A stretch of DNA of 64,000 bases from Chloroflexota bacterium (lineage in GTDB: Bacteria; Chloroflexota; Dehalococcoidia; Lucifugimonadales; Australimonadaceae), in assembly GCA_028874795.1 (NCBI GenBank), contig JAPPHT010000020.1, positions 472 through 64,471 on the forward strand. The letters run 5' to 3'. The translations under genes were made by a program, and so were the position numbers. This document shows, piece after piece, positions 5,631-59,100 of this stretch. Under the pieces are notes generated by a model. That model was not told the DNA's origin. It searched no databases and saw only the letters and a program-made list of their open reading frames with translations. The first letter of the stretch is position 1, and each line of letters begins with the position of its first letter.

Positions 5631-5864
5631 TCAGCGCGCGGGGCGCGACAACGCAGCGTCGGCTTTGCTGGCTACCTCGCGCAGCAGCACACTCGCGCCG
5701 TCGATCTCTATCGCCACGGCGCGGCCCGCCTCATCGTAGTCCAGGACCACGCCCTCAGCGACTTCGACCGACCGGACGCTGGGCTTGTCCTCAAACTGCA
5801 CCCGGAGGATGTCCGATGCCTGGTCGTAGATGGATTCAGGCTTTCGCACTACCGCGTCAACCAT
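5631..5864 (-). CDS. DUF2283-like small protein (putative antitoxin partner)
   Basis: 77-aa ORF with [12 protein letters not shown]...[16 protein letters not shown], typical of DUF2283. It overlaps the upstream ORF by 16 nt. Confidence 0.55.
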
Positions 5865-6094
5865 CGCTCTGCCTCCCCGTCGATGAATGCATTGTGCACT
5901 GTCTCGCCGTCGGGCTCAACCACCACTCTAAGGTAGTGCTGCAGTTCCTCGACGTAACCCCATAGGCGCGTACGTCCGGGACGAGGGTCGGGACGCGACC
6001 ACTCGGGACTCTGCATCACACGTTCACAATACTCATCGTTGAGATAGGGCCTTCTCTTCTCGACGATGTTCCGGTAGTACTCTGTGGCCTTCAT
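5849..6094 (-). CDS. DUF4258-like small protein (putative toxin partner)
   Basis: 81-aa ORF overlapping the DUF2283-like gene. The pair architecture is typical of this two-gene module. Confidence 0.5.
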
Positions 6095-6127
6095 TCGTCA
6101 GACAGTGTAGTGGCGCGGCTCGCATCC

Positions 6128-6499
6128 CTATACCCGGGCCCGCTTCAGCGGACGCCCCGGCAGGCGCGCCCAGACCTCGTCGCCGCGCACGAACGTCTCA
6201 TAGGCTGTCGCGTCGTACGTGTAGCGGTCGAGGCACTCGCCGGTGACGATGTCGAAGATCGCGGAGTGCAGCGGGCAGATCACCTGTCCCGGCTCCACGG
6301 TGCCCCATGAGAGCAGCGCGCCCTGGTGCGGGCAGAAGTTCTCCAGCGTGCCGACGCGCTCGCCGTCCCAGAAGACCGCGACCTCCCACCCCCGGTACCT
6401 GGGGTGCTCGATCTCGATGCCGAGCGCGCCCTTCTCCTGGAGCTCGCCCAGAGGACAGACGTAGTACTCGTTCAGCGTTGTTGGGGTCTGGCCGACCAT
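6128..6499 (-). CDS. Rieske (2Fe-2S) domain protein
   Basis: CPHQGALL...CPLHSAIF gives the CxH...CxxH Rieske ligands. The ATG at 6499 lies within the longer ORF 6128..6886. Confidence 0.8.
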   Translation of the reverse strand: MVGQTPTTLNEYYVCPLGELQEKGALGIEIEHPRYRGWEVAVFWDGERVGTLENFCPHQGALLSWGTVEPGQVICPLHSAIFDIVTGECLDRYTYDATAYETFVRGDEVWARLPGRPLKRARV

Positions 6500-6501
6500 G
6501 C

Positions 6502-6909
6502 CTACTGGATCTCGAGCAGCGGTTGCCCGGCCTCGACGGCCTGGTTCTTCTTGATCTTCACGCCCTTCACCACGCCGCCCCGCGCCATGCGCACGCTCTG
6601 CTCCATCTTCATGGACTCCAGCAGGCAGATCTCGTCGCCGGCCTCCAGCTCCTGGCCCTTGGTGATGGAGACGGAGACGATCTTGCCCGGCAGCGGGCAG
6701 CGGATGACACGCTCGTCGCCCTGCGTGATGCCGCGCAGACCGGGCTGCTCCGCCTTCGGCGGTCCGGCCCGGCGCACCGGCACGCCGGTGTCCGACGGGT
6801 CGCCGACCTCCACCAGGTACGTCTCGCCGTCCACGACGACCTCGACGGGCCGCTGGTAGAGGTCGCCCACCTCCACGTCGTACCAATCGTCATTCACTCG
6901 CACCCGCAT
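6502..6909 (-). CDS. biotin/lipoyl carrier domain protein (BCCP-like)
   Basis: C-terminal EICLLESMKMEQSV biotinylation motif. Only the last 135 codons of ORF 6502..8430 are credible. The start at 6909 follows the accC stop at 6918. Confidence 0.85.
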   Translation of the reverse strand: MRVRVNDDWYDVEVGDLYQRPVEVVVDGETYLVEVGDPSDTGVPVRRAGPPKAEQPGLRGITQGDERVIRCPLPGKIVSVSITKGQELEAGDEICLLESMKMEQSVRMARGGVVKGVKIKKNQAVEAGQPLLEIQ

Positions 6910-6917
6910 CCGTTTCA

Positions 6918-8405
6918 CTACAACACTCCGCTGCTGCTGAGGCGGTTCGCCATCGCCGTGCGGCGACCGTGCATCCGCCACCTGCTGGACTGTATCTCCT
7001 GGGGGGGCTCCTCTTCCAGCGCCATCACCACGGCTATCGCCGCCGCCAGCGCGCTGTTGCGGGCCGGCTCGTTCAACATCCGCTCCAGGAACGCATTGTC
7101 GAACGTGGCGTTCCTGAACTCGCGGTGCTCCATCACGCGACGGACCAGCGGGATGTTCACCACCGGCCCCTCGATGACGTACTGATCCAGCGCCGCGGTC
7201 ATCTGCGCGATCGCCTGCTCCCGCGTCTCGCCGTGGACGACGAGCTTCGCCATCATCGACTCGTAGTACGGCAACACCTCGTAGCCTTCGTACAGCGCGC
7301 TGTCCACCCGCACGTTCGGCCCTTCCGGCTCCACGAGGACGTCCACCGTCCCTGCTGTGGGCAACAGCATCACCGGGTCCTCGGGGTAGATGCGCGCCTC
7401 GATCGCCGCGCCGTGCTGTCGCACGTCCGCCTGCGAGAGCGGCAGGCGCTCGCCCGCCGCGACCCGAAGCTGCAGCTCCACGAGGTCCAGCCCCGTCACC
7501 ATCTCCGTGATGGGGTGCTCCACCTGCAGGCGCGTGTTCATCTCCAGGAAGTAGAAGCGCTCCTCGCTGGCGTCGTACAGATACTCGATGGTGCCCGCGT
7601 TCGTGTAGCCGATGCTCTGCACCAGCCGCACCGCGGAGTCCAGCAGCGCCTGCCGCACCTCCGGCTTGAGCTTGGCGCACGGCGTCTCTTCCACCACCTT
7701 CTGGTTGCGCCGCTGTACGGAGCAGTCGCGCTCGAACAGGTGCAGCGCCTTGCCGTGGTGGTCCGCGATGACCTGCACCTCCACGTGCGACGCGTTCAGG
7801 ATGCGCCGCTCCATGTAGACGCGGCTGCTGCCGAACGCGTTCAGCGCCTGCGAGCGCGCCCGCTCTGTCGCTTCCCGCACCTCCGACAGCTCGTTGACCA
7901 CGCGGATGCCCATACCGCCGCCGCCGTCCGCCGCCTTGATCATGAGCGGGAAGCCGATGCCGCGCGCTATCGCCTCCGCCTGCGCGTCGTCTATCTCGCC
8001 CTCCGCGCCGGGGCTGATCGGCACCCCGGCCTCCCGGGCGAGCCGCCGGGCCATGATCTTGTCGCCCATCTGCGCGATGACCTTGGACGTCGGCCCGATG
8101 AAGCTGAGCCCTTCCTTCTCGACGGCCTCGACGAACGCCGGGTTCTCGGAGAGGAAGCCGTAGCCGGGGTGGATGGCCTGCGCTTTCGCCTTCTTCGCCG
8201 CCTTGATGATGGACTCGCCGTTCAGGTACGACTGCGCTGCCGGTGCGCCGCCGATCTCGATGGCGCGGTCGGCCATCCGCACGTGGAGCGCCTTCGCGTC
8301 CGCGGAAGAGTAGACCGCGACGGCCTCTATGCCGAGGCGCTGGCAGGTGCGGATGACGCGGCAGGCGATCTCGCCCCGGTTGGCGATGAGAACGGTATCG
8401 AACAT
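6918..8405 (-). CDS. accC: biotin carboxylase subunit of a biotin-dependent carboxylase
   Basis: MFDTVLIANRGEIACRVIRTC..., ATP-grasp motifs and EMNTRLQVEHPITE. Start MFDTV at 8405. Confidence 0.95.
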   Translation of the reverse strand: MFDTVLIANRGEIACRVIRTCQRLGIEAVAVYSSADAKALHVRMADRAIEIGGAPAAQSYLNGESIIKAAKKAKAQAIHPGYGFLSENPAFVEAVEKEGLSFIGPTSKVIAQMGDKIMARRLAREAGVPISPGAEGEIDDAQAEAIARGIGFPLMIKAADGGGGMGIRVVNELSEVREATERARSQALNAFGSSRVYMERRILNASHVEVQVIADHHGKALHLFERDCSVQRRNQKVVEETPCAKLKPEVRQALLDSAVRLVQSIGYTNAGTIEYLYDASEERFYFLEMNTRLQVEHPITEMVTGLDLVELQLRVAAGERLPLSQADVRQHGAAIEARIYPEDPVMLLPTAGTVDVLVEPEGPNVRVDSALYEGYEVLPYYESMMAKLVVHGETREQAIAQMTAALDQYVIEGPVVNIPLVRRVMEHREFRNATFDNAFLERMLNEPARNSALAAAIAVVMALEEEPPQEIQSSRWRMHGRRTAMANRLSSSGVL

Positions 8406-29889: not shown

Positions 29890-30190
29890 CACTTGATACC
29901 CGCCCCTTTCGCGATTGCCCCCTGACCCCTACGCTGGTTGCATGACTGTCGCACCGGCACCACCCATAGACCGCGTCTATAGCTCGCAGGCACAGCTATC
30001 GACGGCGTCTATGGTTCCGGTCCCAAACTTTGAAATCGATGGCCCCCTTGCCGCCTTAGACACGGAAGCAGGCCACGGCCTTGTAAACGCGCACATTAAG
30101 GTGGCCAAGGTGGCCAGATCGGCTGTCCGGTTTACTCGTGGACCGGCGACTAAGGTGGCCAGGATTCCGGGGTGTTGGCCCCCTTAACCA
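29890..30190 (+). other. conserved-spacing intergenic element, copy 1
   Basis: Blocks TACGCTGGTTGCATGACTGTCG (29930), CACCCATAGACCGCGTCTATA (29961), CCCAAACTTTGAAATC (30022), GGAAGCAGGCCACGGCCTTG (30064) and CCGGTTTACTCGT (30127). Copy-specific 9-mers are GGCCCCCTT (30041, 30177) and AAGGTGGCC (30098, 30107, 30152). Confidence 0.6.
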
Positions 30191-44419: not shown

Positions 44420-44712
44420 GGTCCCTTCCCCCTCGACGGGGGAAGGCTAGGATGGGGGTGAACTCCCGGGCGTGGCGCGGGGCCTTGTCATGTTGAGCGG
44501 AGCCCGGTGGCGAAGCCGAGGGCGCAGTCGAAACATCTCTCAGGGGCCTGGTCCCTTCCGCCTCGACGGGGGAAGGCTAGAGCCTGCCCCGCACTTGATG
44601 CGGGGATGGGGGTTGAACTCCCGGGCTTGGCGCCGGGGCCTTGTCATGTTGAGCGGAGCCCGGTGGCGAAGCCGAGAACGCAGTCCTGCGCTTGAGCGCG
44701 CAACATCCTCTC
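44420..44712. repeat. tandem duplicated A-F composite repeat
   Basis: Copies at 44420..44545 and 44549..44712. The second A unit carries an insertion. F units read TTGTCATGTTGAGCGGAGCCCGGTGGCGAAGCCGAG... Confidence 0.85.
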
Positions 44713-45061: not shown

Positions 45062-45742
45062 TTACCTCATCTGATCAATCAGACTCTCCACCGTATCCAG
45101 GAAGGCAGGATCATACTGTTCGTCTACGTGGTTACTGTTCCACAGGCCCGACCGCTTGACCTTCTCGCGGTTGCAGTAACAGCCCAGCCAGTCCTGCGAC
45201 GGAGGGTCCACTGGTTCCTTGTCGTAGTTGCTGAGCAAGGCAATCGCGTTGCGTTCGATGTAGCCTCGTAGGCTGTCCGGCCCCGGCTCGTCGTCCACCG
45301 CAAGCCAGAGCAGGTACATGTTGCCTATCGTTGCGCTGGCAACGTCTTCCAAGTCCCTCTCGGCCTCCCTGACCTCTCTGGGCGCAGAATTACCTCGCCC
45401 CCAGGACGGGCAAACCCAGCCACCCCGCTTCATCAAGGCAGTCCCCACGATCTTCCTGAAGACAGACAGTCTATTTGTGCCGCTGCGGTGCTGACGAAGA
45501 CGGTCCCACAGGGTGGCGCGAGAACCCTTCTTCAGGGCGTGTGTTCCCACTCGAACGATGCGGGGGCCTGTGCCTGTGTCGCTCCGGTTCTCGCCGGATT
45601 CCTGGAAGAAATAGACGCCTCGGGCTGGCCAGCCTGTGCGCACAGAGCAATCCGACAGCCTGCGAGGTCCGTTGGTCTTCTTTTTCGCTAGCATGGTCAG
45701 CAAGTTGTAGAAGCGCTTGAGGTCATGGGTGCGGTCGCTCAT
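45062..45742 (-). CDS. GIY-YIG-like nuclease family protein
   Basis: GVYFFQE...RIVRVGTHA...LWDRLRQH...YIERNAIALL, as in a widespread bacterial GIY-YIG-like family of unknown role. Start is 45742 (GAGAGG upstream) or 45763. Confidence 0.5.
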   Translation of the reverse strand: MSDRTHDLKRFYNLLTMLAKKKTNGPRRLSDCSVRTGWPARGVYFFQESGENRSDTGTGPRIVRVGTHALKKGSRATLWDRLRQHRSGTNRLSVFRKIVGTALMKRGGWVCPSWGRGNSAPREVREAERDLEDVASATIGNMYLLWLAVDDEPGPDSLRGYIERNAIALLSNYDKEPVDPPSQDWLGCYCNREKVKRSGLWNSNHVDEQYDPAFLDTVESLIDQMR

Positions 45743-45786
45743 CGTGTTCAACCTCTCGTTCATGGTGCACTTCAAGACGGCACAGG

Positions 45787-46068
45787 TTAGTAGACGATGT
45801 TGGGGTCGTCGCTGTACTCGAACGGTGGATCGACGCCCAGCAGTTTGGCATCCATGTTTTCTATAGCGCCCGCCACGTAGTGCATTCCCGGGGGAAACGT
45901 CGGAACCCAGAGGAGATCCAGGCACGCGTCATCCAGAAGCACCGTGATGCTCTCCTCATCAACTTGCTTCGGATTGTCAACGACCCTCCAGTTACCCTCG
46001 TCGTCGACGGTTACAATAGCCCCCATGACCTCCAGCTTGTAGATGCGACTCTTCTCTTCAGTCATCAA
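45787..46068 (-). CDS. hypothetical protein (93 aa)
   Basis: AGGAGG 5 nt upstream of the ATG at 46068. Acidic, with no recognisable motif. Confidence 0.45.
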   Translation of the reverse strand: MMTEEKSRIYKLEVMGAIVTVDDEGNWRVVDNPKQVDEESITVLLDDACLDLLWVPTFPPGMHYVAGAIENMDAKLLGVDPPFEYSDDPNIVY

Positions 46069-46151
46069 GCACCTCCTGCTCGTAGTTCATAGCGGAAGAC
46101 ACAATTCCTCCCTATACCCGATCAGCCTCCCCTCCAGATGGAAGGGTCACG

Positions 46152-47108
46152 TTATCGACCCAGTGGGAGTTCCCCCGTGATGCGCCCCTTGAACTTGCCG
46201 TGGTCCCAGCCGAACTGGAAGATCGCCATCTCGATGTCGCGGAGGTACCAGCGACCGCCGCCTCGTGGCGCGGGCCGTTCCAGTTCTTTCGCAATGTGCT
46301 CGCAGAATCTGATGAACTGCTCGTAGCTCTTCACCTTCTTGCCACCAATCGTGAAGTCGCGCAAGCAAGCCTTGGCGATCTCGTCCCAGATAGGGGCACT
46401 CTCAGGAGAGCGCATCGCCAGCGCCTTAGTGCCGAATGAATCGCTACAGTACTTGAGGCGTTTCAACTCCTCCAACGCTCGTACCGGGTCTCCATCTGCG
46501 AGCACAGAGAAGGCGGCTTTCATCTGTTCTTGAATCTCATCACTAGAGTTGTTCTTCTTGATCTGAGCAAACAGATTGTGGCCGCGACCGCCTCCCCAGC
46601 GATAAACAATCTCAAGGTCATCCTCTGGATGGATAAACTCGTCTTTCCCTTTCAGTTGCTCGATGAGACTCTCAACCCTTCGGTGACTCTGCTCGCAAAG
46701 TGATTCCTCCAAGCACGGATTCTTCCAATCCCTTTGGATGAAGGCTTCCACCTTGAAGACACACATGTTGTTTTCCAAGTACTTGTCGCGCCATTCAGGC
46801 ACTTTCTGGATGAAGGCTTTGATAGATGTTCCGCTAAGGTTGTCTGCCATGCTAATCTCCTCCAGTGGTGTCCTCCGTCGTCCTGTAAGAACACGCTCCC
46901 AGGTTGCTACGAGTGCTTGCCTCCTCAGCTCCTTGATGTCTGTACCCACAGTCTGCGTTGATCTCCTCGTCTGGATTGGTCCAATGCCAGCCTTTCGGAG
47001 TGTCCCAGCGCATGACGTGCAGTACCGGTATTCTTCCGATCTTTCTATGCCTGATTCAAACTTCTCTTCGCAGCCCATGCAGGTGTAGGTGACCTTACGA
47101 CTCGTCAT
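46152..47108 (-). CDS. Zn-ribbon plus OGG-fold (8-oxoguanine DNA glycosylase-fold)-like protein
   Basis: N-terminal CMGC...CTSC ribbon. The C-terminal IVYRWGGGRG...LKRLKYCSDSFGTKALAMRSPESAPIWD...LRDIEMAIFQFG resembles the family annotated as OGG-fold proteins. GAGGAGG lies upstream of the ATG at 47108. Low GC. Confidence 0.5.
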   Translation of the reverse strand: MTSRKVTYTCMGCEEKFESGIERSEEYRYCTSCAGTLRKAGIGPIQTRRSTQTVGTDIKELRRQALVATWERVLTGRRRTPLEEISMADNLSGTSIKAFIQKVPEWRDKYLENNMCVFKVEAFIQRDWKNPCLEESLCEQSHRRVESLIEQLKGKDEFIHPEDDLEIVYRWGGGRGHNLFAQIKKNNSSDEIQEQMKAAFSVLADGDPVRALEELKRLKYCSDSFGTKALAMRSPESAPIWDEIAKACLRDFTIGGKKVKSYEQFIRFCEHIAKELERPAPRGGGRWYLRDIEMAIFQFGWDHGKFKGRITGELPLGR

Positions 47109-47110
47109 GC

Positions 47111-47317
47111 TTACTGCTCCTCCTCTCCGAACAGGCGCTTGAGCAACGTTTGAGCGTCCTGAATGATTTCGCAGGCTATGCGAAGAACCCAGGCCCCGAA
47201 CGCAGCCATAACAAGCCAGTAGACCCACGTCGTCGGCTTCAACGTCTCCAGATCCATCGTCATGAATGCACAGATCCACAACACGCCGAAGACCGCTATG
47301 TTCCTGAGACAGTGCAT
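47111..47317 (-). CDS. small two-TM membrane protein (68 aa)
   Basis: AGGAGG upstream of the ATG at 47317 and two hydrophobic helices. Its stop abuts the next gene start. Confidence 0.45.
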   Translation of the reverse strand: MHCLRNIAVFGVLWICAFMTMDLETLKPTTWVYWLVMAAFGAWVLRIACEIIQDAQTLLKRLFGEEEQ

Positions 47318-47409
47318 CGCTTACGCACCTCCTGTTCACCGTATCGAGGCTTGTCCTGCGCCGACGCTTCGAGGCACTCGCGAAGCGCGTCTGATCTCGC
47401 CGTATCGAC

Positions 47410-47911
47410 CTACTCTGCTTCCTCCGCACCCCCCTCGCGCTGCTCCCGTTCCAGCCGTTGCCTTCTAACCTCGTGCAGCCAGTTGTGACTCTCGTCGTCT
47501 GTCAGGTCGATCACCGGCGGCTCTTTCCGCAATGGGCCGTCCACCGCTCCACACAGGTCGCAGTAGTAGTCGGCTGGCAGCGAGCCTCCGTCCACCGATG
47601 CCCGGCGGGCCTGCCTCCCTTCCTGGCCCTCGCAGCGCGGGCATGGGGCAGACGTGCGCCAAGACGTGGATGCCAGCAGCCGCTTCGCCTCGGTCAGGGC
47701 CGCGATGACCTCGTCCAGTTCACTCGGATGGACCACTACCCCCCTCTCGGTCGGGTAGGAGAGCTCCCTCAGCGGAGGCAGCCACCACTCGCGGATGTGT
47801 ATCCCCCGGACGAAATGACTGCCGCGAGCAACGATGGCTCACTCGGAGTTCAACATTGGCGACGAGTCCTTCCCGGGGGATGCGTGCAATGATGGTCTCT
47901 TGTTGTGGCAT
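47410..47911 (-). pseudogene. PC4/YdbC-like ssDNA-binding domain fused to a Cys4 ribbon, read in two frames (1-nt shift near 47839)
   Basis: ATG at 47911 with AAGGAG upstream gives MPQQETIIARIPREGLVANVELRV. Skipping nt 47839 continues AIVARGSHFVRGIHIREWWLPPLRELSYPTERGVVVHPSELDEVIAAL...CPRC...CDLC in the frame of ORF 47410..47736. Confidence 0.35.
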
Positions 47912-47957
47912 GTGGCGCTCCTTCCCTTCGGGCAAATCAAGACAAAAAGAATGAAAC

Positions 47958-47988
47958 ATTATATCAGAATTGGAGGTGGATTTGTCAA
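47958..47988 (-). promoter_or_regulatory. strong sigma70-type promoter for the minus-strand accessory operon
   Basis: On the minus strand: TTGACA (47988..47983), 19-nt spacer, TGATATAAT (extended -10; hexamer at 47963..47958). An inverted repeat GGAGGT-N10-ACCTCC (47972..47993) overlaps the -35. Confidence 0.6.
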
Positions 47989-48065
47989 CCTCCTTGAGGC
48001 AACACACGGAGTTGGGGCAGGCGTAAGCAGTCGACCGTAGAAGCAGGGCAACCCGCCCTTGGCCC

Positions 48066-48366
48066 CCACTGACATCCGCCCCTATCGCGGTCGGCACTCG
48101 ATTGCGTACGCTGGTTGCGTGACCGTCGTTCGGACAGCACCCATAGACTGCGTCTATATCTCGGGGCCCAGCCATAGATATGGTCTATGGGTCCGCCGCC
48201 CAACTTTTGAATTCATTGCACACCTTGTTCACTTGTTGCGGGAAGCAGGCCGTGGCCTTGCGCAGAGCGGCGCAAGGTGCTCAAGATGCTCAAATCGAGC
48301 CCCCGGTTTACTCGTAACGCCGGCAACAAGGTGCTCAGAATTCGAGGGCGGTTGCACACCTTGTTC
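48066..48366 (+). other. conserved-spacing intergenic element, copy 2
   Basis: Same five blocks as copy 1, at 48107, 48138, 48199, 48241 and 48303. Block-to-block distances are 31, 61, 42 and 62, against 31, 61, 42 and 63 in copy 1. Copy-specific 9-mers are GCACACCTT (48218, 48354), AAGGTGCTC (48274, 48328) and AAGATGCTC (48283). Confidence 0.6.
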
Positions 48367-48415: not shown

Positions 48416-49243
48416 CTATTGGCGCCGCCCCTCTCCACCGTATCCACTGAGCCGCTCCTCGAGGCGGCGGAGCGTCTCCTGCGTCGTGCGCAGCTCGCGC
48501 AACAGCTCCTCGCGCGAAGGCGGCTCCTCCAACGTGCGGAGTTGGTCGACCTTCGCGCGGTCCAGGTTGTTTATGACCACAGCGATGAAGAGGTTCGCCA
48601 CCACGAATGTGCCACCCACCACGAAGCTGAGGAAGTAGAGCCACGCGAGCCCGTGGTGCTCCATCGCCGCGTACATGATGTCCGTCCAGTCCTCCAGCGT
48701 GATGACCCGGAAGAGCGACAGCAGCGAGATGCCCAGGGTGCGCCAGTGGGTGGGGTCGGCCTCGTGGAAGAGGTGGTAGCCGATGATGGCGTAGATGTAC
48801 ACCACGATGCTCATGAGCATCATGATGTTGGCCACGCTGGGGATGGAGCGCACGAGCGCCCCGACGATGAGCCGCAGCTCCTTGATCGCCGAGATCAGGC
48901 GCAGGACCCGCAGCAGCCGTCCGAGCCGCGCGACCATCGCGAACGAGCCGGTGGCAGGCACGAGCGCGAAGACGATGATGGCGAAGTCGAAGACGTTCCA
49001 GCCGTCACGGAAGTAGCGCTGCGGGGTCGGGGCGAGCGCCAGCATCTTGAGCGCCGCCTCCACGATGAATACACCGAGGATGACCCGGTTCCCCATCTCG
49101 ATGGCGTCGCCGTATTCGTCGACGATATCGGGGGAGGTGGCGAGTCCGAGCAGCGCGCCGCTCGCGAGGATGAGCGCGATGATGGCGTACTCGAATATGC
49201 GCGCGCCAACGATGCGCTGCGCGATGTGGGCTGTGCGGTCCAT
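48416..49243 (-). CDS. voltage-gated cation channel, single 6-TM domain (NaChBac/BacNav-like)
   Basis: S4 with spaced arginines (RLGRLLRVLRLISAIKELR), pore FRVITLEDWTDIMY and a C-terminal coiled coil. Start MDRTAH at 49243. Confidence 0.85.
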   Translation of the reverse strand: MDRTAHIAQRIVGARIFEYAIIALILASGALLGLATSPDIVDEYGDAIEMGNRVILGVFIVEAALKMLALAPTPQRYFRDGWNVFDFAIIVFALVPATGSFAMVARLGRLLRVLRLISAIKELRLIVGALVRSIPSVANIMMLMSIVVYIYAIIGYHLFHEADPTHWRTLGISLLSLFRVITLEDWTDIMYAAMEHHGLAWLYFLSFVVGGTFVVANLFIAVVINNLDRAKVDQLRTLEEPPSREELLRELRTTQETLRRLEERLSGYGGEGRRQ

Positions 49244-51606: not shown

Positions 51607-52266
51607 TCAGTACCAACCTAGCGGCTTGGAGAAAAGTCCTTGTGCGTCAGTGAGCTGGTCGGGGAACTGACACCTCCGCAGCAGAGAGGTGTTGATCCTG
51701 TCAATCATCCGTGTGGAGGCGCGCCTCATCTCCCAGACTCCTTGCCTGGCCCTACGCTGCGGGTTGATGACGATGACCGGTTTCCTAAACTCGTCCCGGA
51801 CAATTCTGACAGGCAACGCAAGATCAGAGTCGTTCGAAACGACCACTGCCTGTTCGTAGTCTCCCCTGAAGCAATCGAGTAGGAGGTAAGCGGCAATGTT
51901 GACGTCCGTGCCCTTCTCCTCGTCCTTGATGATTTCCTCCATAAGCGGCAGAGCACCCGGTCCAGCCCCTTGAGCATACCGATACGGGTAGATGGGGTAC
52001 TTGCCCCGCCGGGCTTTGAATTGCCCCTCGATAATCTCCAGCACCGGCAGCGTACGGAGCGCGCGCAAATAAAATTCTTGGCGGTCTGGCGCATCCGGGT
52101 CATGGGGACGCGCCTTAACACGCGCTGTGAAGTACCGTATCCGATTGATCGACGCTGTGGGGAGCAGCGCTTGTACAAGCGCTTGGGGGTTCAGCCACTT
52201 GTTGTTGGTCCCCTTGACGGCGCCGTTGTACAGGTTGAGGCCGTCTATGTAGACGTTGGTCTTCAT
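51607..52266 (-). CDS. NYN (LabA/PIN-like) domain protein
   Basis: MKTNVYIDGLNLY...EEKGTDVNIAAYLL...AVVVSNDSDLALPV gives the acidic residues of NYN ribonuclease-like domains. Confidence 0.75.
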   Translation of the reverse strand: MKTNVYIDGLNLYNGAVKGTNNKWLNPQALVQALLPTASINRIRYFTARVKARPHDPDAPDRQEFYLRALRTLPVLEIIEGQFKARRGKYPIYPYRYAQGAGPGALPLMEEIIKDEEKGTDVNIAAYLLLDCFRGDYEQAVVVSNDSDLALPVRIVRDEFRKPVIVINPQRRARQGVWEMRRASTRMIDRINTSLLRRCQFPDQLTDAQGLFSKPLGWY

Positions 52267-52400
52267 TGAGAGCCGTTAACATGCGACGACCGCTCCGTAG
52301 AGCGGTCTCGCTACCCGGTAGCCACAGGCATCCGGGGGGGTCAAGCAATATACTAGTGCAACGTCAGCCGGGCGTCAAGCGCAATCCCTCAGGTAGTGTC

Positions 52401-52475
52401 TCAGTTTGAGGTGAACACCAGCGCGAGGCCAATGATGGCGACCCACGCCGCCAGGACAACCAAGGCTCCTCTCAT
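52401..52475 (-). CDS. 24-aa hydrophobic peptide (MRGALVVLAAWVAIIGLALVFTSN)
   Basis: ATG at 52475 is preceded by GGAGGGAG with 7-nt spacing. It has a single TM-length hydrophobic stretch and a TGA stop at 52401..52403. It is below the ORF-track size cut-off. Confidence 0.3.
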   Translation of the reverse strand: MRGALVVLAAWVAIIGLALVFTSN

Positions 52476-52834
52476 CACGCTCCCTCCGTCAAGCGGAATC
52501 CGAACATTCGTGCTAGGATACCACTACCCACCTTCCAGCGGCCCTATCCGCTCCAGCAGTCCCCTAAGCCTCGGCCGCGTTTGAGGCGTTCGAAGAAGAC
52601 AACTAACGCTGCCGCTGGAAGGAATCCTTGGCGTTGCCACCTCACGGCAGCTCTACTGCCGGCATCGTGTGGGCCTAGCGGGTCCGGCCCATGGCGATGG
52701 CTCGTAGTAGGCGGCGAAATCTGCGGTATCGACTCTTCCCGCCTCACCCCGCAGGCGTGGTATCGTTCCCACAACGCATCGGTTGTTCCGAGGCACCCGG
52801 ACGACCACCATGCTGATACCCGGAGAAGAGCTAC

Positions 52835-55800
52835 ATGGCCGACGAGTCCAACGCCACGAACGACAACATCATGAAGTTCCAAGACCTGCTCCGCGAGCTC
52901 TTCCAGTTCGACTGCGCCGACCTCGACTTCGGCATCTACCGCATAATGAACCACAAACGGGACGCCATCGAGCGGTTCATCACCGAGCAACTCCCTGCCT
53001 CTGTCGCCGCGGAGTTGGACAGCGGACCGTTGGCCCAACAAGCCCAGGCCGCCACTAAGCTCGCCGAAGCAGCACAGAGCATCAGGTCTGTCGCTCCTAA
53101 CGCCATTGGCGATGATGGCGTGCTGGCTGAGCAGTTCCATGACTCCGATGCAGGTCAACAGTACTTGCAGGCTCAGGCTAGGGTGGCCGGCAGCAGTCGC
53201 AGCCGAGGCGCTGCCGAAACCGCAATCTACAACCACCTGTACACCTTCTTCAGCCGTTACTACGACGAGGGAGATTTCATATCCAAGCGCCGCTACTCGC
53301 GCAACCAGCGTTACGCCATCCCTTACAACGGCGAGGAGGTCTACCTGCATTGGGCCAACAGCGACCAGTACTACGTGAAGACAGAAGAGCACTTCCGCAA
53401 CTACGACTGGACGGCCCCGAACGGCGTATCTATACGCTTCCGCCTCCAGATCGTCGACGTCGAGCAGAACAACGTCAAGGGCGACAAGCGCTTCTTCCTT
53501 CCTCTGGTTGACGAAGCCGAGTGGGATGCGGAAGTCGCTATCCTGACAGTCCCCTTCGAATATCGGCCCCTAAGCAGTTTCGAGAAGACTCGTTACGGCA
53601 GTCAGGCTCAGGACAGAATCATTGCTAACGCAGTTGAGACTCTACCAAGTTTGCTAGGCCATGCGCCCAACGCGCTTGCGGCACTCATCAGCGAACATCG
53701 CCGGGGCGCCAATGGCGAATCTGTCTCCAATCTACAGCACCACCTGGTGCGCTACACGCGCCGCAACAACTCCGACTTCTTCATTCACAAGGATCTCGCC
53801 GGGTTCCTCAACCGTGAGCTGGACTTCTACCTGAAGAACGAGGTGCTCAGCCTCGACGAGGTCGCCAACGCCGGAGAGAACATGGCGGACGGCTGGTTCC
53901 AGCAGTTGCGTCTCATCAAGGCTGTCGGCGGCAAGGTCATCGACTTCCTCGCCCAGATCGAGGACTTCCAGAAGATGCTCTGGGAGAAGCGCAAGTTCGT
54001 CACGGAGACGCAGTACTGCATCACTTTGGGGAACATCGACGCTGCCTTCTACCCGGAGGTTCTCACCAACGACATGCAATGGGAGGAGTGGCAGGAGCTG
54101 TTCAGCATCGACGGCAACGACCGGAGTGTGGCGTTCCTGCAGACCAACCCCACCCTCGTGCTGGACACCAAGCACTACAGTGCCGATTTCGCCGAGCGTT
54201 TGCTTGCGTCTTTTGCTTATTTGGACGGGATGACCGATGGAGTATTGATACACAGTGAGAACTGGCAAGCTTTAGGACTAACTGCTGAGAAATATGCTAA
54301 CAGTGTCCAGTGTGTTTATCTCGACCCTCCATACAATTCGAAGACCTCGGAAATCCTCTACAAGAATGACTACCGGCATTCCTCATGGCTTTCACTCATC
54401 GACAACCGCATAACCATCAGCAGTCATTATACAACTGCTACCGGCTCACATATTGTGGCAATCGACGAAAACGAACAAATCTTCTTAGGTCAGTTGCTCG
54501 CCTACCGATTTCCAGGCAATAACAACGTTTGTGTTAGCATTATCCATAACAAGAAAGGAATTCAAGGGGATCATTTATCCTACAATCATGATTTTGCGTA
54601 CTTTAGCATTCCAAAGGCACTCAAATCAACGCATGGACGGCCAATCATGGAAGATGATTGGGAGTACATCCAACTCAGAAAATGGGGGCGTGAATCAGAA
54701 CGATTTACCGCCAAGAACTGTTTCTTTCCAATCTTTGTACAAGACGGAGAATTAGTGGGCTTTGGAGACGTGTGCTAAGACACCTTCCACCCCGATATGT
54801 CTAATATCAGTCGCACAGACGGAAGTATTGCAGTTTATCCGGTGGATCCTGCGGGCATAGAGCGCAAATGGCGATATGCGAGAAACTCCATAGAGAGGAT
54901 AACTCATTTGCTGAAGGCTCACACTACAAGGCATGGAGAAGTGCAGATTCTGAAGGCAAATGAAGAGAAACAGGCGAAGACTGTTTGGGATGATTCGAGA
55001 TAGATTGCAGGCGATTATGGAACACGATGGCTTTCTAACCTTGGATTGAAAATACAGGACAATCTCTACCCCAAATCCGTCTACACGGTACAAGACTCCA
55101 TACGTTTGGTTTCGGAGAACGATTCTCTGACGATGGACTACTTCGCAGGATCCGGTACTACAGGCCACGCCGTGATCAACCTGAACCGTGAAGACGGAGG
55201 CGAACGCAAATTTATCCTTGTGGAAATGGGCGAATACTTCGATACGGTGCTGTTGCCCCGCATCAAGAAAGTGACTTTTTCCCCAGAATGGAAAGATGGG
55301 AAGCCTCAACGCGAAGCCACGCAAGAGGAGGCCGAACGATCGCCCCGTATCGTGAAATACATCCGCTTGGAGTCCTACGAAGATGCATTGGACAGCATAG
55401 AGTTTGACTCCGCCGCGGGGCAGATGCGGCTGGCAGAGGAGTCGGACGAATACCTGATTAAATACATGCTGCGGTGGGAGACGAAAGCGAGCGAAACACT
55501 GCTGAACACAGCCAAACTGACCAGGCCCTTTGCCTACCGGCTTCGGGTTCACGCCAACGGAGAGAAGCGGGAGCGGACGGTCGACGTGCCGGAGACGTTC
55601 AACTACCTCCTGGGGCTGCATGTCCGCAGGCGCCAGACGTACGACGACAATGGGCGACGCTACTTGGTATACCGTGGCGAAACTCGCGCCGAACCGGGGC
55701 GGGAGGTCGCGGTCGTGTGGCGGGAGACCGAAGGATGGTCGGAGGGCGACTTCGACCGGGACCGCCGGTTCGTTGCGGCAAGGGGAATGACTTGGGACGC

Positions 55801-55900
55801 GGACACCGTGTACATGAACGGAGGCTCCTCGATCCCGAACACCAAGGCGATCGAACCGCTGTTCGAGGCGCGCATGTTCGCGGCTGTGAGTGCGGTGTAG
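52835..55900 (+). pseudogene. Type III-like DNA methyltransferase (Mod, beta-class N6/N4) with two in-frame stops
   Basis: ORFs 52835..54778, 54797..55003 and 55046..55900 share one frame. TAA lies at 54776..54778 and TAG at 55001..55003. DPPYN (about 54323) is in the first part and DYFAGSGTTGHAV (about 55135) in the third. N-terminal DLDFGIYRIMN region. Confidence 0.7.
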
Positions 55901-55917
55901 CCGGGAGAGAGTCGCGG

Positions 55918-58900
55918 ATGCCGCCACGCAAGCCACCTACTTCCGGCCTCGGTTACGCTCGCTTGGAGCAACAATTGGTGCTCCTTGGCTGGCTACACCG
56001 GCAGCTGGGCTATTCCAGTACTCCTGAATTGCTGGCCGAACTCAAGTCTACGAACGAGGGGTTCGATGCGGACGGACGTAGTGACCTCCACGTCCGGTTG
56101 ACCACGCGATCAGAACGCCTACAAGGCGTGACTACTGACGACTTGGAGCGTTACAACGACAACATCCGTGGGTACTTGGGAGCGATGAACGCAGGCCGGT
56201 CTGAACCGATCACGCTGCGCTACTTCCAGTACCTCGCCGCGCTGTACGCCGAAATATACCTCGACCGCTACTACAGCGACCGCGACGCGCTCCTGCGCTC
56301 GCTGAACGAATTCGTTGACCGATCCGCCGGATGGTACGAACCGTTCCAAGGGGGAGACCTCTCCAAGCTGGCGTTCTGGATGGCCACGGGCAGCGGCAAG
56401 ACGCTGCTGCTGCACCTGAACTACCGACAGTTTCTCCACTACAACCGGAGATACGGTGGAGCACCCTTGGACAACATTCTGTTAATCACGCCCAACGAGG
56501 GGCTGAGCCAGCAGCACATCGGCGAACTAGAGGCGTCTAACATCTCAGCCTCGCGGTTCAACCTCAACGAACCCGGAGGGCTGCTCGGTGGAGACGGAAC
56601 GGTCAAAGTCACTGAGGTCACCAAACTCGTGATGAACAAGCGGGGCGAGGGCGAGAGCGTTCCAGTGGAAGCCTTCGAGGGGAACAACCTGATCTTCGTG
56701 GACGAGGGACACAAGGGAGCCAGTTCCGAAGCAAAGGCATGGCGGAAGGTGCGTGACGCGCTAGGCGAAACCGGGTTCACGTTCGAGTACAGCGCCACGT
56801 TCGGACAGGCGCTCGCTGCGGCGAAAGACGAGGCATTGCTAAAGGAGTACGGCAAGGCCATCGCCTTCGACTACTCCTACCGCCACTTCCACGCCGACGG
56901 CTACGGTAAGGACTTCCGTATTCTGAATCTCCAACAGGAAACAACGTCGGACCAAACGGACACGCTATTGCTGGCCAACATGCTCGCGTTCTACGAACAG
57001 CAACTGGTTTTTGCGGAATTAGGTGAACTACGCAGCGGTTACAAGCTTGATCGACCACTATGGCTGTTCGTTGGCAACACTGTCCAGAAGAAGGAGAATA
57101 GCGTTTACCAGAGCGACCTGTTCACGGTAATCAGATTCTTGCACAGGGTGCTCTCCGAACCGGCGTGGGCGAGAGAGCGCATAGGAGCATTTCTGCGAGG
57201 GGACTCGGGCTTGCCTGATGCTTCTGACGGAAGGGATATCTTCGCCGATGAGTTTGCGTACCTTCGAAGCAGCGGCAAGGATGCAACCACACTGTATAGC
57301 GACATGTTGGCCGGAGTGTTGCATGTGACAGGAGTAGGCGGATTGCACGTAGTTGAAATGAAAGGCTGCGAGGGGGAATTGGGGCTTAGATCTGCTGGTA
57401 GCGACGAATACTTCGGTGTTCTCTACATAGGCGACACTGCTTCATTCAAAGAGATGGTAAGGCAGAATGATGGCGGCATAGTGGTCGAAGATGACGCCTT
57501 GCACGGTTCTCTGTTCAATCGCATCAACGACCATGGCTCCACTGTAGAAGTGCTGGCGGGATCCCGAAAGTTCATGGAGGGCTGGAACTCGTGGCGGGTA
57601 TCCAACATGGGGCTGCTGAACATCGGCCACGGCGAAGGATCCCAGATCATCCAGCTGTTCGGGCGCGGCGTCCGCTTGCGAGGGCGGAACATGACGCTGA
57701 AGCGCAGCGCTGCGTTGCCGGGCGAGGCGCACCCCAAGGGTATCGGGCTCTTGGAAACCCTGAACATCTTCGCTCTTCGCGCCGACTACATGGGCCGCTT
57801 CCGGGATTATCTGGAGAACGAGGGCATAGAAGAGACGATAACACTCCCGCTGCCCATACAGACCAATGAAGACTTCCTGAAGCAGGGCCTGGTTATTCCC
57901 CGCCTAGAGCAGGGCGCCCGCTTCGATGAGTCCGTCCTTCTGAGATACGACAGCGGCGTTCGGCCGGTGTCGGTAGATCTGTCGGCGCGGGTGCAGGTGA
58001 TATCCAGTGGAGAGTCCGGCGTCGCCGTTGCCAGCGCACAGTCCGGCGGTGCGGTGCAGGTGCCGAGCGAGAGCCTGGACCTCGTTGACTGGGAGCGTGT
58101 GTATCTGGACCTGCTGGCGCACAAGGAAACGAGAGGCTACGGAAACCTCATCATACAACCTATCCGGTTGCGGGAGATACTGGAAGCCGGAGAGCAGGTG
58201 TACGAACTGACCGCCGACGAATCCCTGAGGAAACCGAGCAGCCGTGCCGACCAAGAGCGGTTGCAGGACGCGGTAGCGAGCATTCTGCGGAAGTACGCCG
58301 ACCGGCTCTACGCACGCCGCCAATCGGCTTGGGAGTCGCGGAACCTCATCTACAAGGAGTTGGACGACACCGACGAGAACTTCTTGGTAGTCATGGACGA
58401 TGAGGGCAAGGCGTATACGATTGAGGCACCGCGCAGTGAGCCGACCCTGCTCAGGGATATCCGGCGCCTGATCAACGATGTCAGCAGACTCTACGACGCA
58501 GGGGGAGAACCATTGCCGCGCATACACTTCGACCGGCATCTCTACCAGCCGTTGCTCGTCGAGCCTCAGCGGAAGGGGGTAAAGGTCTTGCCGCCTGCAC
58601 TGCAGGAGAGCGAGCGGAAGTTCGTTGATGACCTACGGGAGTTCTGTGGCGACGAACCGCGTAAGCTGCCGGACGGGGTCGAGCTATTCCTGCTGCGCAA
58701 CCTAACCCGAGGAAGGGGCGTGGGCTTCTTCGAAATGAACTGGTTCTACCCTGACTTCATCCTCTGGGTAAAGAGAGCCGATGGGCAGCGCATCGTGTTC
58801 GTGGAGCCCCACGGCATGGTGCATGCGTATGCTTATGAGCAGGACGAAAAGGCACAGCTGCACGAACGGTTGCCTGCACTGGCGAATGCGATAGCGCAAC

Positions 58901-59100
58901 GCTCGCCCGGAAGGAACGTGCAGCTCGACTCGTTCATCGTTTCAGCTACAAAATACGACGTGTTGCGCCCGCTGTACGGCGACGGGGATTGGACGAGAGA
59001 CGACTTCGCGGCGAAGCACATCCTGTTTCCGGACCGCAACGCCGACTACGACTACATCGCGAATATACTTGAGCCGCTTCCTCCAGACCCGGCTGAGTAG
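55918..59100 (+). CDS. Type III-like restriction subunit (Res): SF2 helicase plus C-terminal nuclease-like module
   Basis: WMATGSGKT (about 56380), FVDEGHK (about 56701) and a helicase C-lobe (FMEGWNSWRV...QLFGRGVRL). The C-terminus has FYPDFILWVK...IVFVEPHG, a PD-(D/E)xK-like motif. ATG at 55918 is 18 nt after the Mod stop. Confidence 0.75.
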   Translation: MPPRKPPTSGLGYARLEQQLVLLGWLHRQLGYSSTPELLAELKSTNEGFDADGRSDLHVRLTTRSERLQGVTTDDLERYNDNIRGYLGAMNAGRSEPITLRYFQYLAALYAEIYLDRYYSDRDALLRSLNEFVDRSAGWYEPFQGGDLSKLAFWMATGSGKTLLLHLNYRQFLHYNRRYGGAPLDNILLITPNEGLSQQHIGELEASNISASRFNLNEPGGLLGGDGTVKVTEVTKLVMNKRGEGESVPVEAFEGNNLIFVDEGHKGASSEAKAWRKVRDALGETGFTFEYSATFGQALAAAKDEALLKEYGKAIAFDYSYRHFHADGYGKDFRILNLQQETTSDQTDTLLLANMLAFYEQQLVFAELGELRSGYKLDRPLWLFVGNTVQKKENSVYQSDLFTVIRFLHRVLSEPAWARERIGAFLRGDSGLPDASDGRDIFADEFAYLRSSGKDATTLYSDMLAGVLHVTGVGGLHVVEMKGCEGELGLRSAGSDEYFGVLYIGDTASFKEMVRQNDGGIVVEDDALHGSLFNRINDHGSTVEVLAGSRKFMEGWNSWRVSNMGLLNIGHGEGSQIIQLFGRGVRLRGRNMTLKRSAALPGEAHPKGIGLLETLNIFALRADYMGRFRDYLENEGIEETITLPLPIQTNEDFLKQGLVIPRLEQGARFDESVLLRYDSGVRPVSVDLSARVQVISSGESGVAVASAQSGGAVQVPSESLDLVDWERVYLDLLAHKETRGYGNLIIQPIRLREILEAGEQVYELTADESLRKPSSRADQERLQDAVASILRKYADRLYARRQSAWESRNLIYKELDDTDENFLVVMDDEGKAYTIEAPRSEPTLLRDIRRLINDVSRLYDAGGEPLPRIHFDRHLYQPLLVEPQRKGVKVLPPALQESERKFVDDLREFCGDEPRKLPDGVELFLLRNLTRGRGVGFFEMNWFYPDFILWVKRADGQRIVFVEPHGMVHAYAYEQDEKAQLHERLPALANAIAQRSPGRNVQLDSFIVSATKYDVLRPLYGDGDWTRDDFAAKHILFPDRNADYDYIANILEPLPPDPAE

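Follow-up and report, generated by a model that had tools for sequence, protein, structure and literature searches.

Recognition of modified phage DNA is a fast-moving field of bacterial defense, represented by Brig1, the Dag glycosylases, the END nucleases and CMoRE. In END nucleases, an inactivated EndoIII/OGG-like sensor of hypermodified bases is fused to PLD, a NucS-like nuclease or a McrB GTPase. These enzymes provide restriction of hypermodified phages, and the authors align their C-terminal domain to the Pfam family PF21790 (10.1101/2025.03.31.646159). Dag1 and Dag2 are stand-alone helix-hairpin-helix (HhH) glycosylases that defend against 7-deazaguanine phages, and the bifunctional Dag1 needs K118 and D184 and, in part, D132 (10.1101/2025.10.29.685425). 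Brig1 is also a defense glycosylase (PMC11078745), and CMoRE is a GIY-YIG type IV restriction enzyme with an acidic autoinhibitory loop (PMC12923530). Here, we describe a cassette of minus-strand genes at positions 45062-47995 of a 64,000-nt stretch of a Chloroflexota genome (contig JAPPHT010000020.1; hereafter, the window) whose products include an OGG-like HhH protein (g3), a small acidic protein (g4) and a GIY_YIG_3 protein (g5).

The last of these proteins leads to a further set of candidates, the PDC systems, which were picked by "guilt by embedding" as genes embedded in BREX, DISARM or type I restriction-modification (R-M) loci (10.1101/2024.01.29.577857). One of them, PDC-M57, has an A component of the DUF6884 type and a B component of the GIY_YIG_3 family. 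DUF6884 is YaaA-like, and a family member, YfjM, binds abasic and RNA-base lesions and has been modeled flipping a base (PMC11701544). The stretch is best explained as the cargo of a defense hotspot, carried as one promoter-driven cassette. We propose, with moderate confidence, that it encodes a multi-gene, modification-dependent (type IV-like) anti-phage module with a logic akin to that of the END nucleases and Dag/Brig1.

A GIY_YIG_3 protein with exchanged partners

The gene g5 occupies positions 45062..45742 of the minus strand. An alternative ATG lies at 45763, but the start at 45742, which yields 226 aa as in the database copy, is most likely. The protein matches the PADLOC model of PDC-M57B (PDLC04714) with an E-value of 3.5e-77 over 222 of 233 residues. 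More than 4,200 homologues share about 60-80% identity with it, all with the precomputed Pfam label PF26468 (GIY_YIG_3). Its AlphaFold2 model, with a predicted local distance difference test score (pLDDT) of 91, has an order of elements compatible with the GIY-YIG core, and the family keeps G49-V-Y51, R71-V-G73, R88, H92 and E170 invariant. A search of PDB sequences with the g5 profile gave nothing significant. An earlier, preliminary description of this DNA had called g5 a GIY-YIG-like protein; the call now has a candidate system and a family name attached to it, and the fold itself, backed by the Pfam label and the motifs, is probable.

To whom does such a protein usually belong? We surveyed 82 g5-family loci from across Bacteria (loci in other genomes are given here by L numbers). 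A DUF6884 gene directly adjoins the g5 homologue in 63 of them by phmmer, and five more hold a divergent DUF6884 recognized by eye from its CxxxK and LSAxxG motifs, for a total of at least 68. The same GIY_YIG_3-DUF6884 pairing is annotated in RefSeq on a Deinococcus plasmid, and the DUF6884 partner in L003 matches PDC-M57A (E = 2.8e-6) and, weakly, DpdC. Relatives of g3, g4 or the other cassette genes discussed below (g1, g2 and X) stand beside the g5 homologue in 0 of the 82 loci.

The window presents a different pairing. No DUF6884 (PF21818) was found in the genome, which is 97% complete, and PADLOC returned no hit, to PDC-M57A or otherwise, for g1-g4. A cryptic DUF6884 within the cassette was also rejected, as none of g1, g3, g4 and X exceeded a probability of 1.3% when compared with a DUF6884 alignment by hhalign. 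The five OGG-linked g5 sequences group together in a maximum-likelihood tree, as one clade (Shimodaira-Hasegawa-like approximate likelihood ratio test [SH-aLRT], 99) that is nested within a DUF6884-linked Chloroflexota/Dehalococcoidia clade (SH-aLRT 98); their closest DUF6884-linked relative, in L114, is 65% identical. This nesting indicates a single replacement, and we conclude that g5 exchanged its ancestral DUF6884 partner once, inside the Chloroflexota clade.

The GIY_YIG_3 family also occurs in other settings. In Dehalococcoidia relatives, one or two PaREP1-family genes come after the GIY_YIG_3 gene, whether or not DUF6884 is present, and are another recurrent partner (L114:7380-8505, L050:6705-7103, L094:6656-7493). 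A metagenome-assembled genome from Planctomycetales (L037) has two tandem GIY_YIG_3 paralogues without DUF6884 (5887-6714 and 7390-8097), and in L032 the gene is spread over two open reading frames (ORFs) and is likely a pseudogene. Distant homologues (38-40% identity) are found on haloarchaeal megaplasmids; in the Haloarcula plasmid NZ_CP010533.1 (L112), the GIY_YIG_3 gene adjoins an ArdC-like gene for single-stranded DNA (ssDNA) binding and an HNH endonuclease gene, with no DUF6884.

In the window, g5 keeps company with g3 (46152..47108, minus strand), whose 318-aa product combines a Zn ribbon (residues 1-45) with an OGG-like HhH glycosylase-fold domain (residues 87-318). The OGG fold had already been proposed from the sequence, and it withstood closer examination. 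Pfam PF21790 (OGG) is matched with E = 5.7e-6 and 26.6 bits by hmmscan and with 27.3 bits in a six-frame search. The AlphaFold2 model (pLDDT 84, and above 90 over residues 90-318) finds SsOgg as its best Foldseek match in the PDB (3fhg; E = 0.016, probability 0.99), followed by MutY, CacOgg, EndoIII, thymine glycosylase and mOGG1, so that the best matches are all HhH-GPD glycosylases. A PDB sequence search with the g3 profile returned nothing significant, and hhalign against the six HhH-GPD proteins of the same genome was not significant overall (probability 5%), with the HhH-Asp region aligned.

As in bifunctional HhH-GPD enzymes, the helix-hairpin-helix of g3, which reads ...SFG(T/S)K..., leads into a Pro-rich loop and then an Asp (SPESAPIWD). 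The 34 close homologues all keep K228 and D242. Among 38 relatives reaching down to 22% identity, K228 does not vary, and conservation is at least 90% at D242, D291 and E293. Judging from the motif and a low-confidence hhalign alignment, K228 and D242 would be the catalytic positions, and g3 appears to keep the Lys/Asp pair of active HhH-GPD enzymes.

The g3 gene is not a housekeeping OGG of base-excision repair (Ogg1, Ogg2 or AGOG), because PF21790 is absent from 14 model genomes and the genome carries six ordinary PF00730 (HhH-GPD) genes elsewhere. The family is small. A word-indexed search found 34 proteins, and 270 representatives reach E ≤1e-3 among 1.84 billion. When 400 other genomes of the phylum were searched with the g3 profile, none matched, and a scan of Joint Genome Institute metagenomes for g3 relatives gave no confirmed match.

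Between g3 and g5 lies g4 (45787..46065, minus strand), which encodes an acidic protein of 92 aa with a pI of 4.05 (19 Asp and Glu vs 6 Lys and Arg). It belongs to a small family of 12 proteins. In 5/5 g5 loci, g4 is immediately upstream of g5 at a distance of 44-48 nt. Its ties to g3 are also evident: the two are fused in L001, with g4 at the g3 C-terminus, and g4-like genes accompany g3 without g5 in L014, L116 and L117. We compared the window with L001 and L002 and obtained ratios of nonsynonymous to synonymous substitution rates (dN/dS) of 0.22-0.34 for g3, 0.07-0.17 for g4 and 0.24-0.31 for g5. With values of 0.07-0.34 throughout, g3, g4 and g5 are therefore real, constrained genes, and the cassette genes are under purifying selection.

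A promoter-driven cassette in a defense hotspot

The cassette stands out by base composition. In a 1-kb profile of the window, the GC content over 45-48 kb is 0.585, 0.540 and 0.595, and it is otherwise 0.63-0.71 outside two low patches, at 45-48 kb and 51-59 kb. The flanks of the cassette have a GC content of 0.63-0.70 and the whole genome one of 0.661, so the impression that the patch is AT-richer than its surroundings was correct (0.54-0.60 vs 0.66). The minus strand of 45062-47995 holds six ORFs, including g1-g5, all single copy in the genome. They are located where the preliminary description had placed them, but "tightly packed" describes them imperfectly, with gaps of 92, 2, 86 and 44 nt between consecutive genes from g1 to g5. 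Similarly, the strong Shine-Dalgarno sequence claimed for every gene is seen as an AGGAG-type motif before g1, g2, g3 and g4, but g5 has a weaker GAGAGG before its ATG at 45742.

A promoter precedes these genes at 47958..47988 on the minus strand. It consists of TTGACA (47988-47983), a 19-nt spacer and TATAAT (47963-47958), with the TG of an extended -10 element at 47966-47965 (TGaTATAAT). Both hexamers are perfect, which bears out, and slightly exceeds, the near-consensus promoter first described. A consensus promoter scan, which accepts only spacers of 16-18 nt, reported no promoter because the spacer is 19 nt long. The TTGACA-19-TATAAT block and the TTCTTTTT that follows it are identical in 7/7 genus loci with the OGG-like gene and are found in 0/11 without it. 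To the left of the -35 box, the genus loci are no longer similar in sequence, and we therefore assign the promoter to the cassette. An inverted repeat over the -35 box, also described initially, did not survive comparison, as it is not kept in the six other cassettes.

The cassette lies between an ion-channel gene of the voltage-gated type and relA. Homologues of the ion-channel gene are present in 20/21 other species representatives of the genus, and we extracted the stretch between the two genes from 15 other species and from metagenome contigs. Across these loci, the gap measures 0.7-4.8 kb with a GC content of 0.49-0.62, and g3 is found in 4 of the 15 extracted genus loci. Elsewhere, the gap holds GmrSD (Pfam GmrSD_N/C; PADLOC Orf5, E = 3.6e-158), Mrr_cat with ankyrin repeats (PDC-S02/type IV restriction endonuclease), a CAP12/Pycsar-type TIR protein (PDC-S35), DUF4238 (Pfam), Abi_C/AbiJ (Pfam and PADLOC) and HNH (Pfam). 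We conclude that it is a variable defense-gene hotspot in the genus. In the window itself, the cassette is 3.5-11 kb away from the candidate defense gene HEC-09 and from a type III R-M system, both located at 51.6-59.1 kb. A defense-island setting, which had been suggested as a check on the idea of a DNA-targeting module, is thus borne out by the cargo of sister species and by these neighbors.

The absence of an integrase, transposase or phage structural gene, noted at the outset, was also upheld: none was found, and there were no significant PHROG hits. Searches with g3 and g5 against 50,697 phage records by tblastn gave no match. Given the lack of PHROG hits, phage-record matches and an integrase, we rejected a prophage remnant. 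Neither a tRNA nor a known RNA (Rfam) was found at the island edge.

Parts of the gene set recur, rearranged and with one fusion, in 11 further loci. The g3 homologue is present in seven loci of the genus (the window, L001, L002, L013, L014, L016 and L021). In the window, the order is promoter, broken g1, g2, g3 with its Zn ribbon, g4 and g5, and L113 has g1, g3 with the Zn ribbon, g4 and g5. In L001, the promoter is followed by X, the g3-g4 fusion and g5; in L002, by X, an ADP-ribosylglycohydrolase gene, g4, g5 and then g3 with the Zn ribbon. Other loci lack g5. L116 has g1, g2, a g4-like gene and g3, as far as its contig reaches; L117 has g1, a g4-like gene and g3; L014 has the promoter, g1, a g4-like gene and g3 with the Zn ribbon; L021 has the promoter, g1, a short g1 and g3; and L013 and L016 have the promoter, X and g3.

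From this comparison, g3 is the constant core of the cassette in 12 related loci, and the first position is taken by g1 or X. No g3 locus seen is without a partner gene, either X or g1. Mostly, g4 goes with g3, and g5 occurs in five loci only, all of one sub-lineage, and in 1/21 other species representatives searched in the genus. The g4-g5 junction is unchanged in all five while g3 shifts from upstream to downstream. The proposed check of whether the genes co-occur as a conserved cassette therefore has a mixed outcome: parts of it do recur, but there is no fixed five-gene set, the nuclease gene is limited to one sub-lineage, and all recurrences are at one and the same locus of a single genus rather than in independent lineages.

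The first gene of the cassette, g1 (47410..47911, minus strand), encodes a PC4-like N-terminal domain and a CxxC...CxxC Zn ribbon, but its frame is broken. The frame from the ATG at 47911 meets a stop at 47720, and the rest of the PC4-like/Zn-ribbon sequence is read in the +1 frame. The cause is a single additional T at 47831/47830 (CGTTGC here vs CG-TGC in three intact homologues, one from L014 and two copies from L021, both in other species); L113 and L116 also hold intact copies. The extra T may reflect either a true pseudogene or an assembly error. A programmed frameshift was judged unlikely, since a slippery site is lacking and the T is just missing from the homologues. PC4/YdbC-type proteins bind ssDNA. 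A profile of four g1 homologues has BPSL1147 (5a4n), human PC4 (1pcf) and 6ycs as its first PDB matches (E = 0.33-1.3), and Pfam gives no hit beyond faint Zn-ribbon matches, so the PC4-like assignment is weakly supported. The original picture of a PC4/YdbC-like domain joined to a Cys4 ribbon is accordingly weakened twice, by the lack of one open frame and by the modest PDB matches. The next gene, g2 (47111..47317, minus strand), encodes a 68-aa peptide with two hydrophobic segments. It has no family match in the Pfam, PADLOC or PHROG libraries; a homologue of 67 aa (38% identical, E = 3.9e-11) occupies the same position after g1 in L116, and L113 has no g2.

Domain X, of about 150 aa, alternates with g1 as the first cassette gene (L001:2251-2868, L002:4983-5528, L013:7066-7611). 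In seven database proteins (P0127, P0132, P0140, P0142, P0145, P0148 and P0156), it is fused N-terminally to the OGG-like domain. Its invariants are E9, E42, H83 and a C-terminal GVY, with an N-terminal (F/V)IG...R stretch, and by these motifs it looks like a possibly permuted GIY-YIG-like nuclease. X has no Pfam, PADLOC or PDB-profile match, and no significant relation of X or g4 to GIY-YIG domains or g5 was detected by hhalign. The ADP-ribosylglycohydrolase of L002 (PF03747; 5538-6647) belongs to a family acting on nucleic-acid or protein modification. Its longer ORF (ATG 5538, 23 codons upstream of the called start) has an N-terminal extension that repeats the C-terminal tail motif of g1, PVIDLT(D/N)DESHxWLH. 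The shared motif suggests that cassettes may be shuffled via recombination at gene ends.

Several repeats surround the cassette. A non-coding dispersed repeat of about 300 nt at 48066..48366 is a flank between the ion-channel gene and the promoter and not cargo. It has about 20 copies in the genome, at 67-88% identity and on many contigs, including another in the window at about 29890-30190, and it has no Rfam or tRNA match. When ORFs are read across this flank, immediately downstream of the ion-channel gene, those of most genus loci cluster together (ORF families 1-3), and the flank holding the repeat looks conserved beside the hotspot in most species of the genus. The repeat might be a recombination anchor for cargo exchange. 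In three relatives, the hotspot contains short duplicates of the 3' end of the ion-channel gene, about 27-42 codons long (L001:1625-1750, L002:4685-4777 and L018 at about 5759-5839), which resemble scars left by repeated insertion or recombination events.

Two exact copies of a 16-nt direct repeat, CTCTCCACCGTATCCA, bracket the cassette as a whole: one, at 45084-45099, sits in the final codons of g5, and the other, at 48431-48446, in those of the ion-channel gene. By chance, about 0.002 such matches are expected in 4.2 kb. We rejected the repeat as an att-like site. It occurs in this genome only, as the g5 end of relatives differs from it by two mismatches and their channel end has no counterpart, so conservation as a recombination site is not seen. 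At 44420..44685, between relA and the cassette, are direct and inverted repeats resembling repetitive extragenic palindromic (REP) elements (families D1, D3 and D5 and pair I5). They form three REP-like blocks of two copies each (31, 29 and 52 nt; 90-97% identity), including the palindrome GGTCCCTTCC...GGGGGAAGG. Farther away, the second low-GC patch (51607-59100) contains HEC-09 (E = 3.3e-37) and the type III R-M system, whose Mod is split in two ORFs (52835-54778 and 55046-55900) and whose Res matches REase_III with E = 3.4e-141.

Possible functions of the cassette

How might these proteins work together? In the anti-phage module that we propose, g3 would scan incoming DNA, flip out non-canonical (hypermodified) bases and probably excise them. 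The g5 protein would cut the DNA at or near the bases flipped by g3, and g4 would couple or restrain the two. The outcome would be restriction of phages with modified genomes. The preliminary description had also imagined a module that recognizes and cuts modified or foreign DNA. The hotspot, the OGG fold and the PDC-M57B match speak for that idea; the lack of a fixed cassette and the restriction to one genus do not.

Several observations weigh against our proposal. PDC-M57 is itself a candidate system only, and lesion binding and repair have been linked to DUF6884 (PMC11701544). The PF21790 score of g3 sits at the cut-off of 27 bits, and its Foldseek TM-scores are low (0.29/0.40). For g5, Foldseek found no match with E <2 in the PDB (entries to April 2026) or BFVD, and hhalign against 29 classical GIY-YIG domains from this and related genomes was not significant, with a P of only 0.013. 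The g1 gene is broken here. At least six loci (L013, L014, L016, L021, L116 as far as its contig reaches, and L117) have g3 without g5, and therefore the core does not require the nuclease. Finally, every locus in which g3, g4 and g5 are linked belongs to the same genus and the same chromosomal site, so the linkage could reflect shared ancestry rather than function.

A horizontally acquired accessory cassette for DNA repair, useful under oxidative or alkylation stress, would involve the same proteins in other roles. As an extra OGG-type glycosylase, g3 would remove damaged bases, the GIY-YIG nuclease would incise the lesion or abasic site in the manner of UvrC or an AP endonuclease, and the PC4-like binder would protect ssDNA. 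The fold and Lys/Asp pair of g3 are indeed those of repair glycosylases, ssDNA binding is what PC4/YdbC-type proteins do (weak as the assignment of g1 is), and GIY_YIG_3-DUF6884 pairs are often found among ordinary metabolic genes. The usual partner of g5 points the same way, since DUF6884 is related to YaaA and its member YfjM binds abasic and RNA-base lesions (PMC11701544). However, a repair function fits poorly with a low-GC cassette in a hotspot that holds bona fide defense genes in sister species, and with a spread as patchy as that of g5 (1/21 species representatives) and g3 (4/15 loci). Six HhH-GPD genes are already available to the genome, PF21790 is absent from the 14 model genomes, and PDC-M57 genes were chosen for their embedding in BREX, DISARM or R-M loci. 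We consider a repair cassette unlikely.

Two uncoupled neighbors are also an unlikely arrangement, in our estimate, although hotspots do gather independent systems. The cassette would then comprise a self-sufficient glycosylase module (g1 or X, g2, g3 and g4) and an orphan GIY_YIG_3 gene left from a PDC-M57-type pair, in keeping with the six loci in which g3 lacks g5 (L013, L014, L016, L021, L117 and, as far as its contig reaches, L116) and with the pairing of the g5 family with DUF6884 almost everywhere else. Against this reading, g5 without DUF6884 is intact, keeps all family invariants and has a dN/dS of 0.24-0.31 over 19-31% protein divergence. Its junction with g4 (44-48 nt) is kept in 5/5 loci despite the shuffling of other genes, and all five g5 genes are under the same architecture, with none of the clade found away from g3/g4. 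That very junction invites another explanation, in which g5 is a DNA-cutting toxin and g4 its inhibitor, as a DNA mimic or antitoxin; such an addiction pair would stabilize the island or trigger abortive infection independently of base recognition by g3. The small, acidic g4 is always directly upstream of g5, and an acidic loop autoinhibits the GIY-YIG defense enzyme CMoRE (PMC12923530). But g4-like genes stand beside g3 without g5 in L014, L116 and L117, the L001 fusion joins g4 to g3 and not to g5, and we found no PADLOC or Pfam toxin-antitoxin signature. A toxin-antitoxin pair thus seems quite improbable.

Returning to the modification-dependent module, we tentatively suggest a more specific version of it, as a possibility that falls well short of an expectation. 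GIY_YIG_3 may be a dedicated effector nuclease that acts in trans with interchangeable base-flipping sensors, mostly DUF6884 (YaaA/DpdC-like) and here an OGG-like HhH protein, with g4, an adaptor or brake, docking the nuclease to its new sensor. If so, the cassette would be a three-protein, trans-acting counterpart of the END nucleases, and a function in sensing modified or damaged bases would be assigned to the widespread candidate pair PDC-M57/DUF6884.

In any case, the locus is a natural partner-swap experiment, in which a widespread candidate nuclease family has exchanged DUF6884 for an OGG-like protein and an acidic protein in a hotspot with type IV-like enzymes. If the coupling of these proteins is true, DUF6884 and OGG-like proteins play equivalent sensing roles, the PDC-M57 candidate gains a testable mechanism, and the END-type logic of sensor and nuclease exists as separate, exchangeable genes. 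The g3-g4-g5 unit is compact, at about 2 kb, and easy to test in laboratory strains.

Relation to described systems

The preliminary description knew of no described system with this gene set. That statement needs qualification: g5 belongs to the listed candidate PDC-M57, with DUF6884 as its usual partner, OGG-like domains are the sensors of END nucleases, and Dag proteins are published HhH defenses. The cassette resembles PDC-M57 in that g5 fits PDC-M57B end to end. However, the A component is absent from both cassette and genome, and the OGG-like HhH protein, which is unrelated to it, and the acidic protein are in its place.

With the END nucleases, the cassette shares a PF21790-type sensor domain, the family matched by g3 with a borderline but consistent score. 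It also shares the combination of a putative base-flipping HhH module with a DNA-cutting module in a defense island. In contrast to END nucleases, g3 and the candidate nuclease g5 are separate genes. Here g3 is fused only to a Zn ribbon, and in relatives it is fused to X or g4 rather than to PLD, PD-DExK or McrB. The END paper reports no combination with a GIY-YIG-type nuclease (10.1101/2025.03.31.646159), whereas g5 is a GIY_YIG_3 protein. The END sensor is described as catalytically dead, whereas g3 appears, by its motif, to keep the HhH Lys (K228) and Asp (D242). The cassette also has the extra partners g4, g1 and g2.

The Dag glycosylases offer a parallel for these residues: the 14-residue spacing of K228 and D242 and the position of D291 at K+63 resemble the arrangement of K118, D132 and D184 of Dag1 as given in the paper. 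Like Dag and Brig1, g3 would be a glycosylase fold repurposed for defense, as variable cargo and with highly divergent sequence. But Dag and Brig1 act as single genes, and g3 always has X or g1 for company, a g4-type gene in most cases and, here, a nuclease gene as well; moreover, Brig1 has the uracil-DNA glycosylase fold and not the HhH fold of g3. CMoRE, for its part, is a GIY-YIG nuclease aimed at modified DNA, as g5 may be, and its autoinhibition by negative charge is a possible analogy for the acidic g4. Unlike g5, which is a separate gene, CMoRE carries a sensor domain of its own within one polypeptide. Overall, the cassette is related to PDC-M57, the END nucleases and the Dag glycosylases and is not categorically new.

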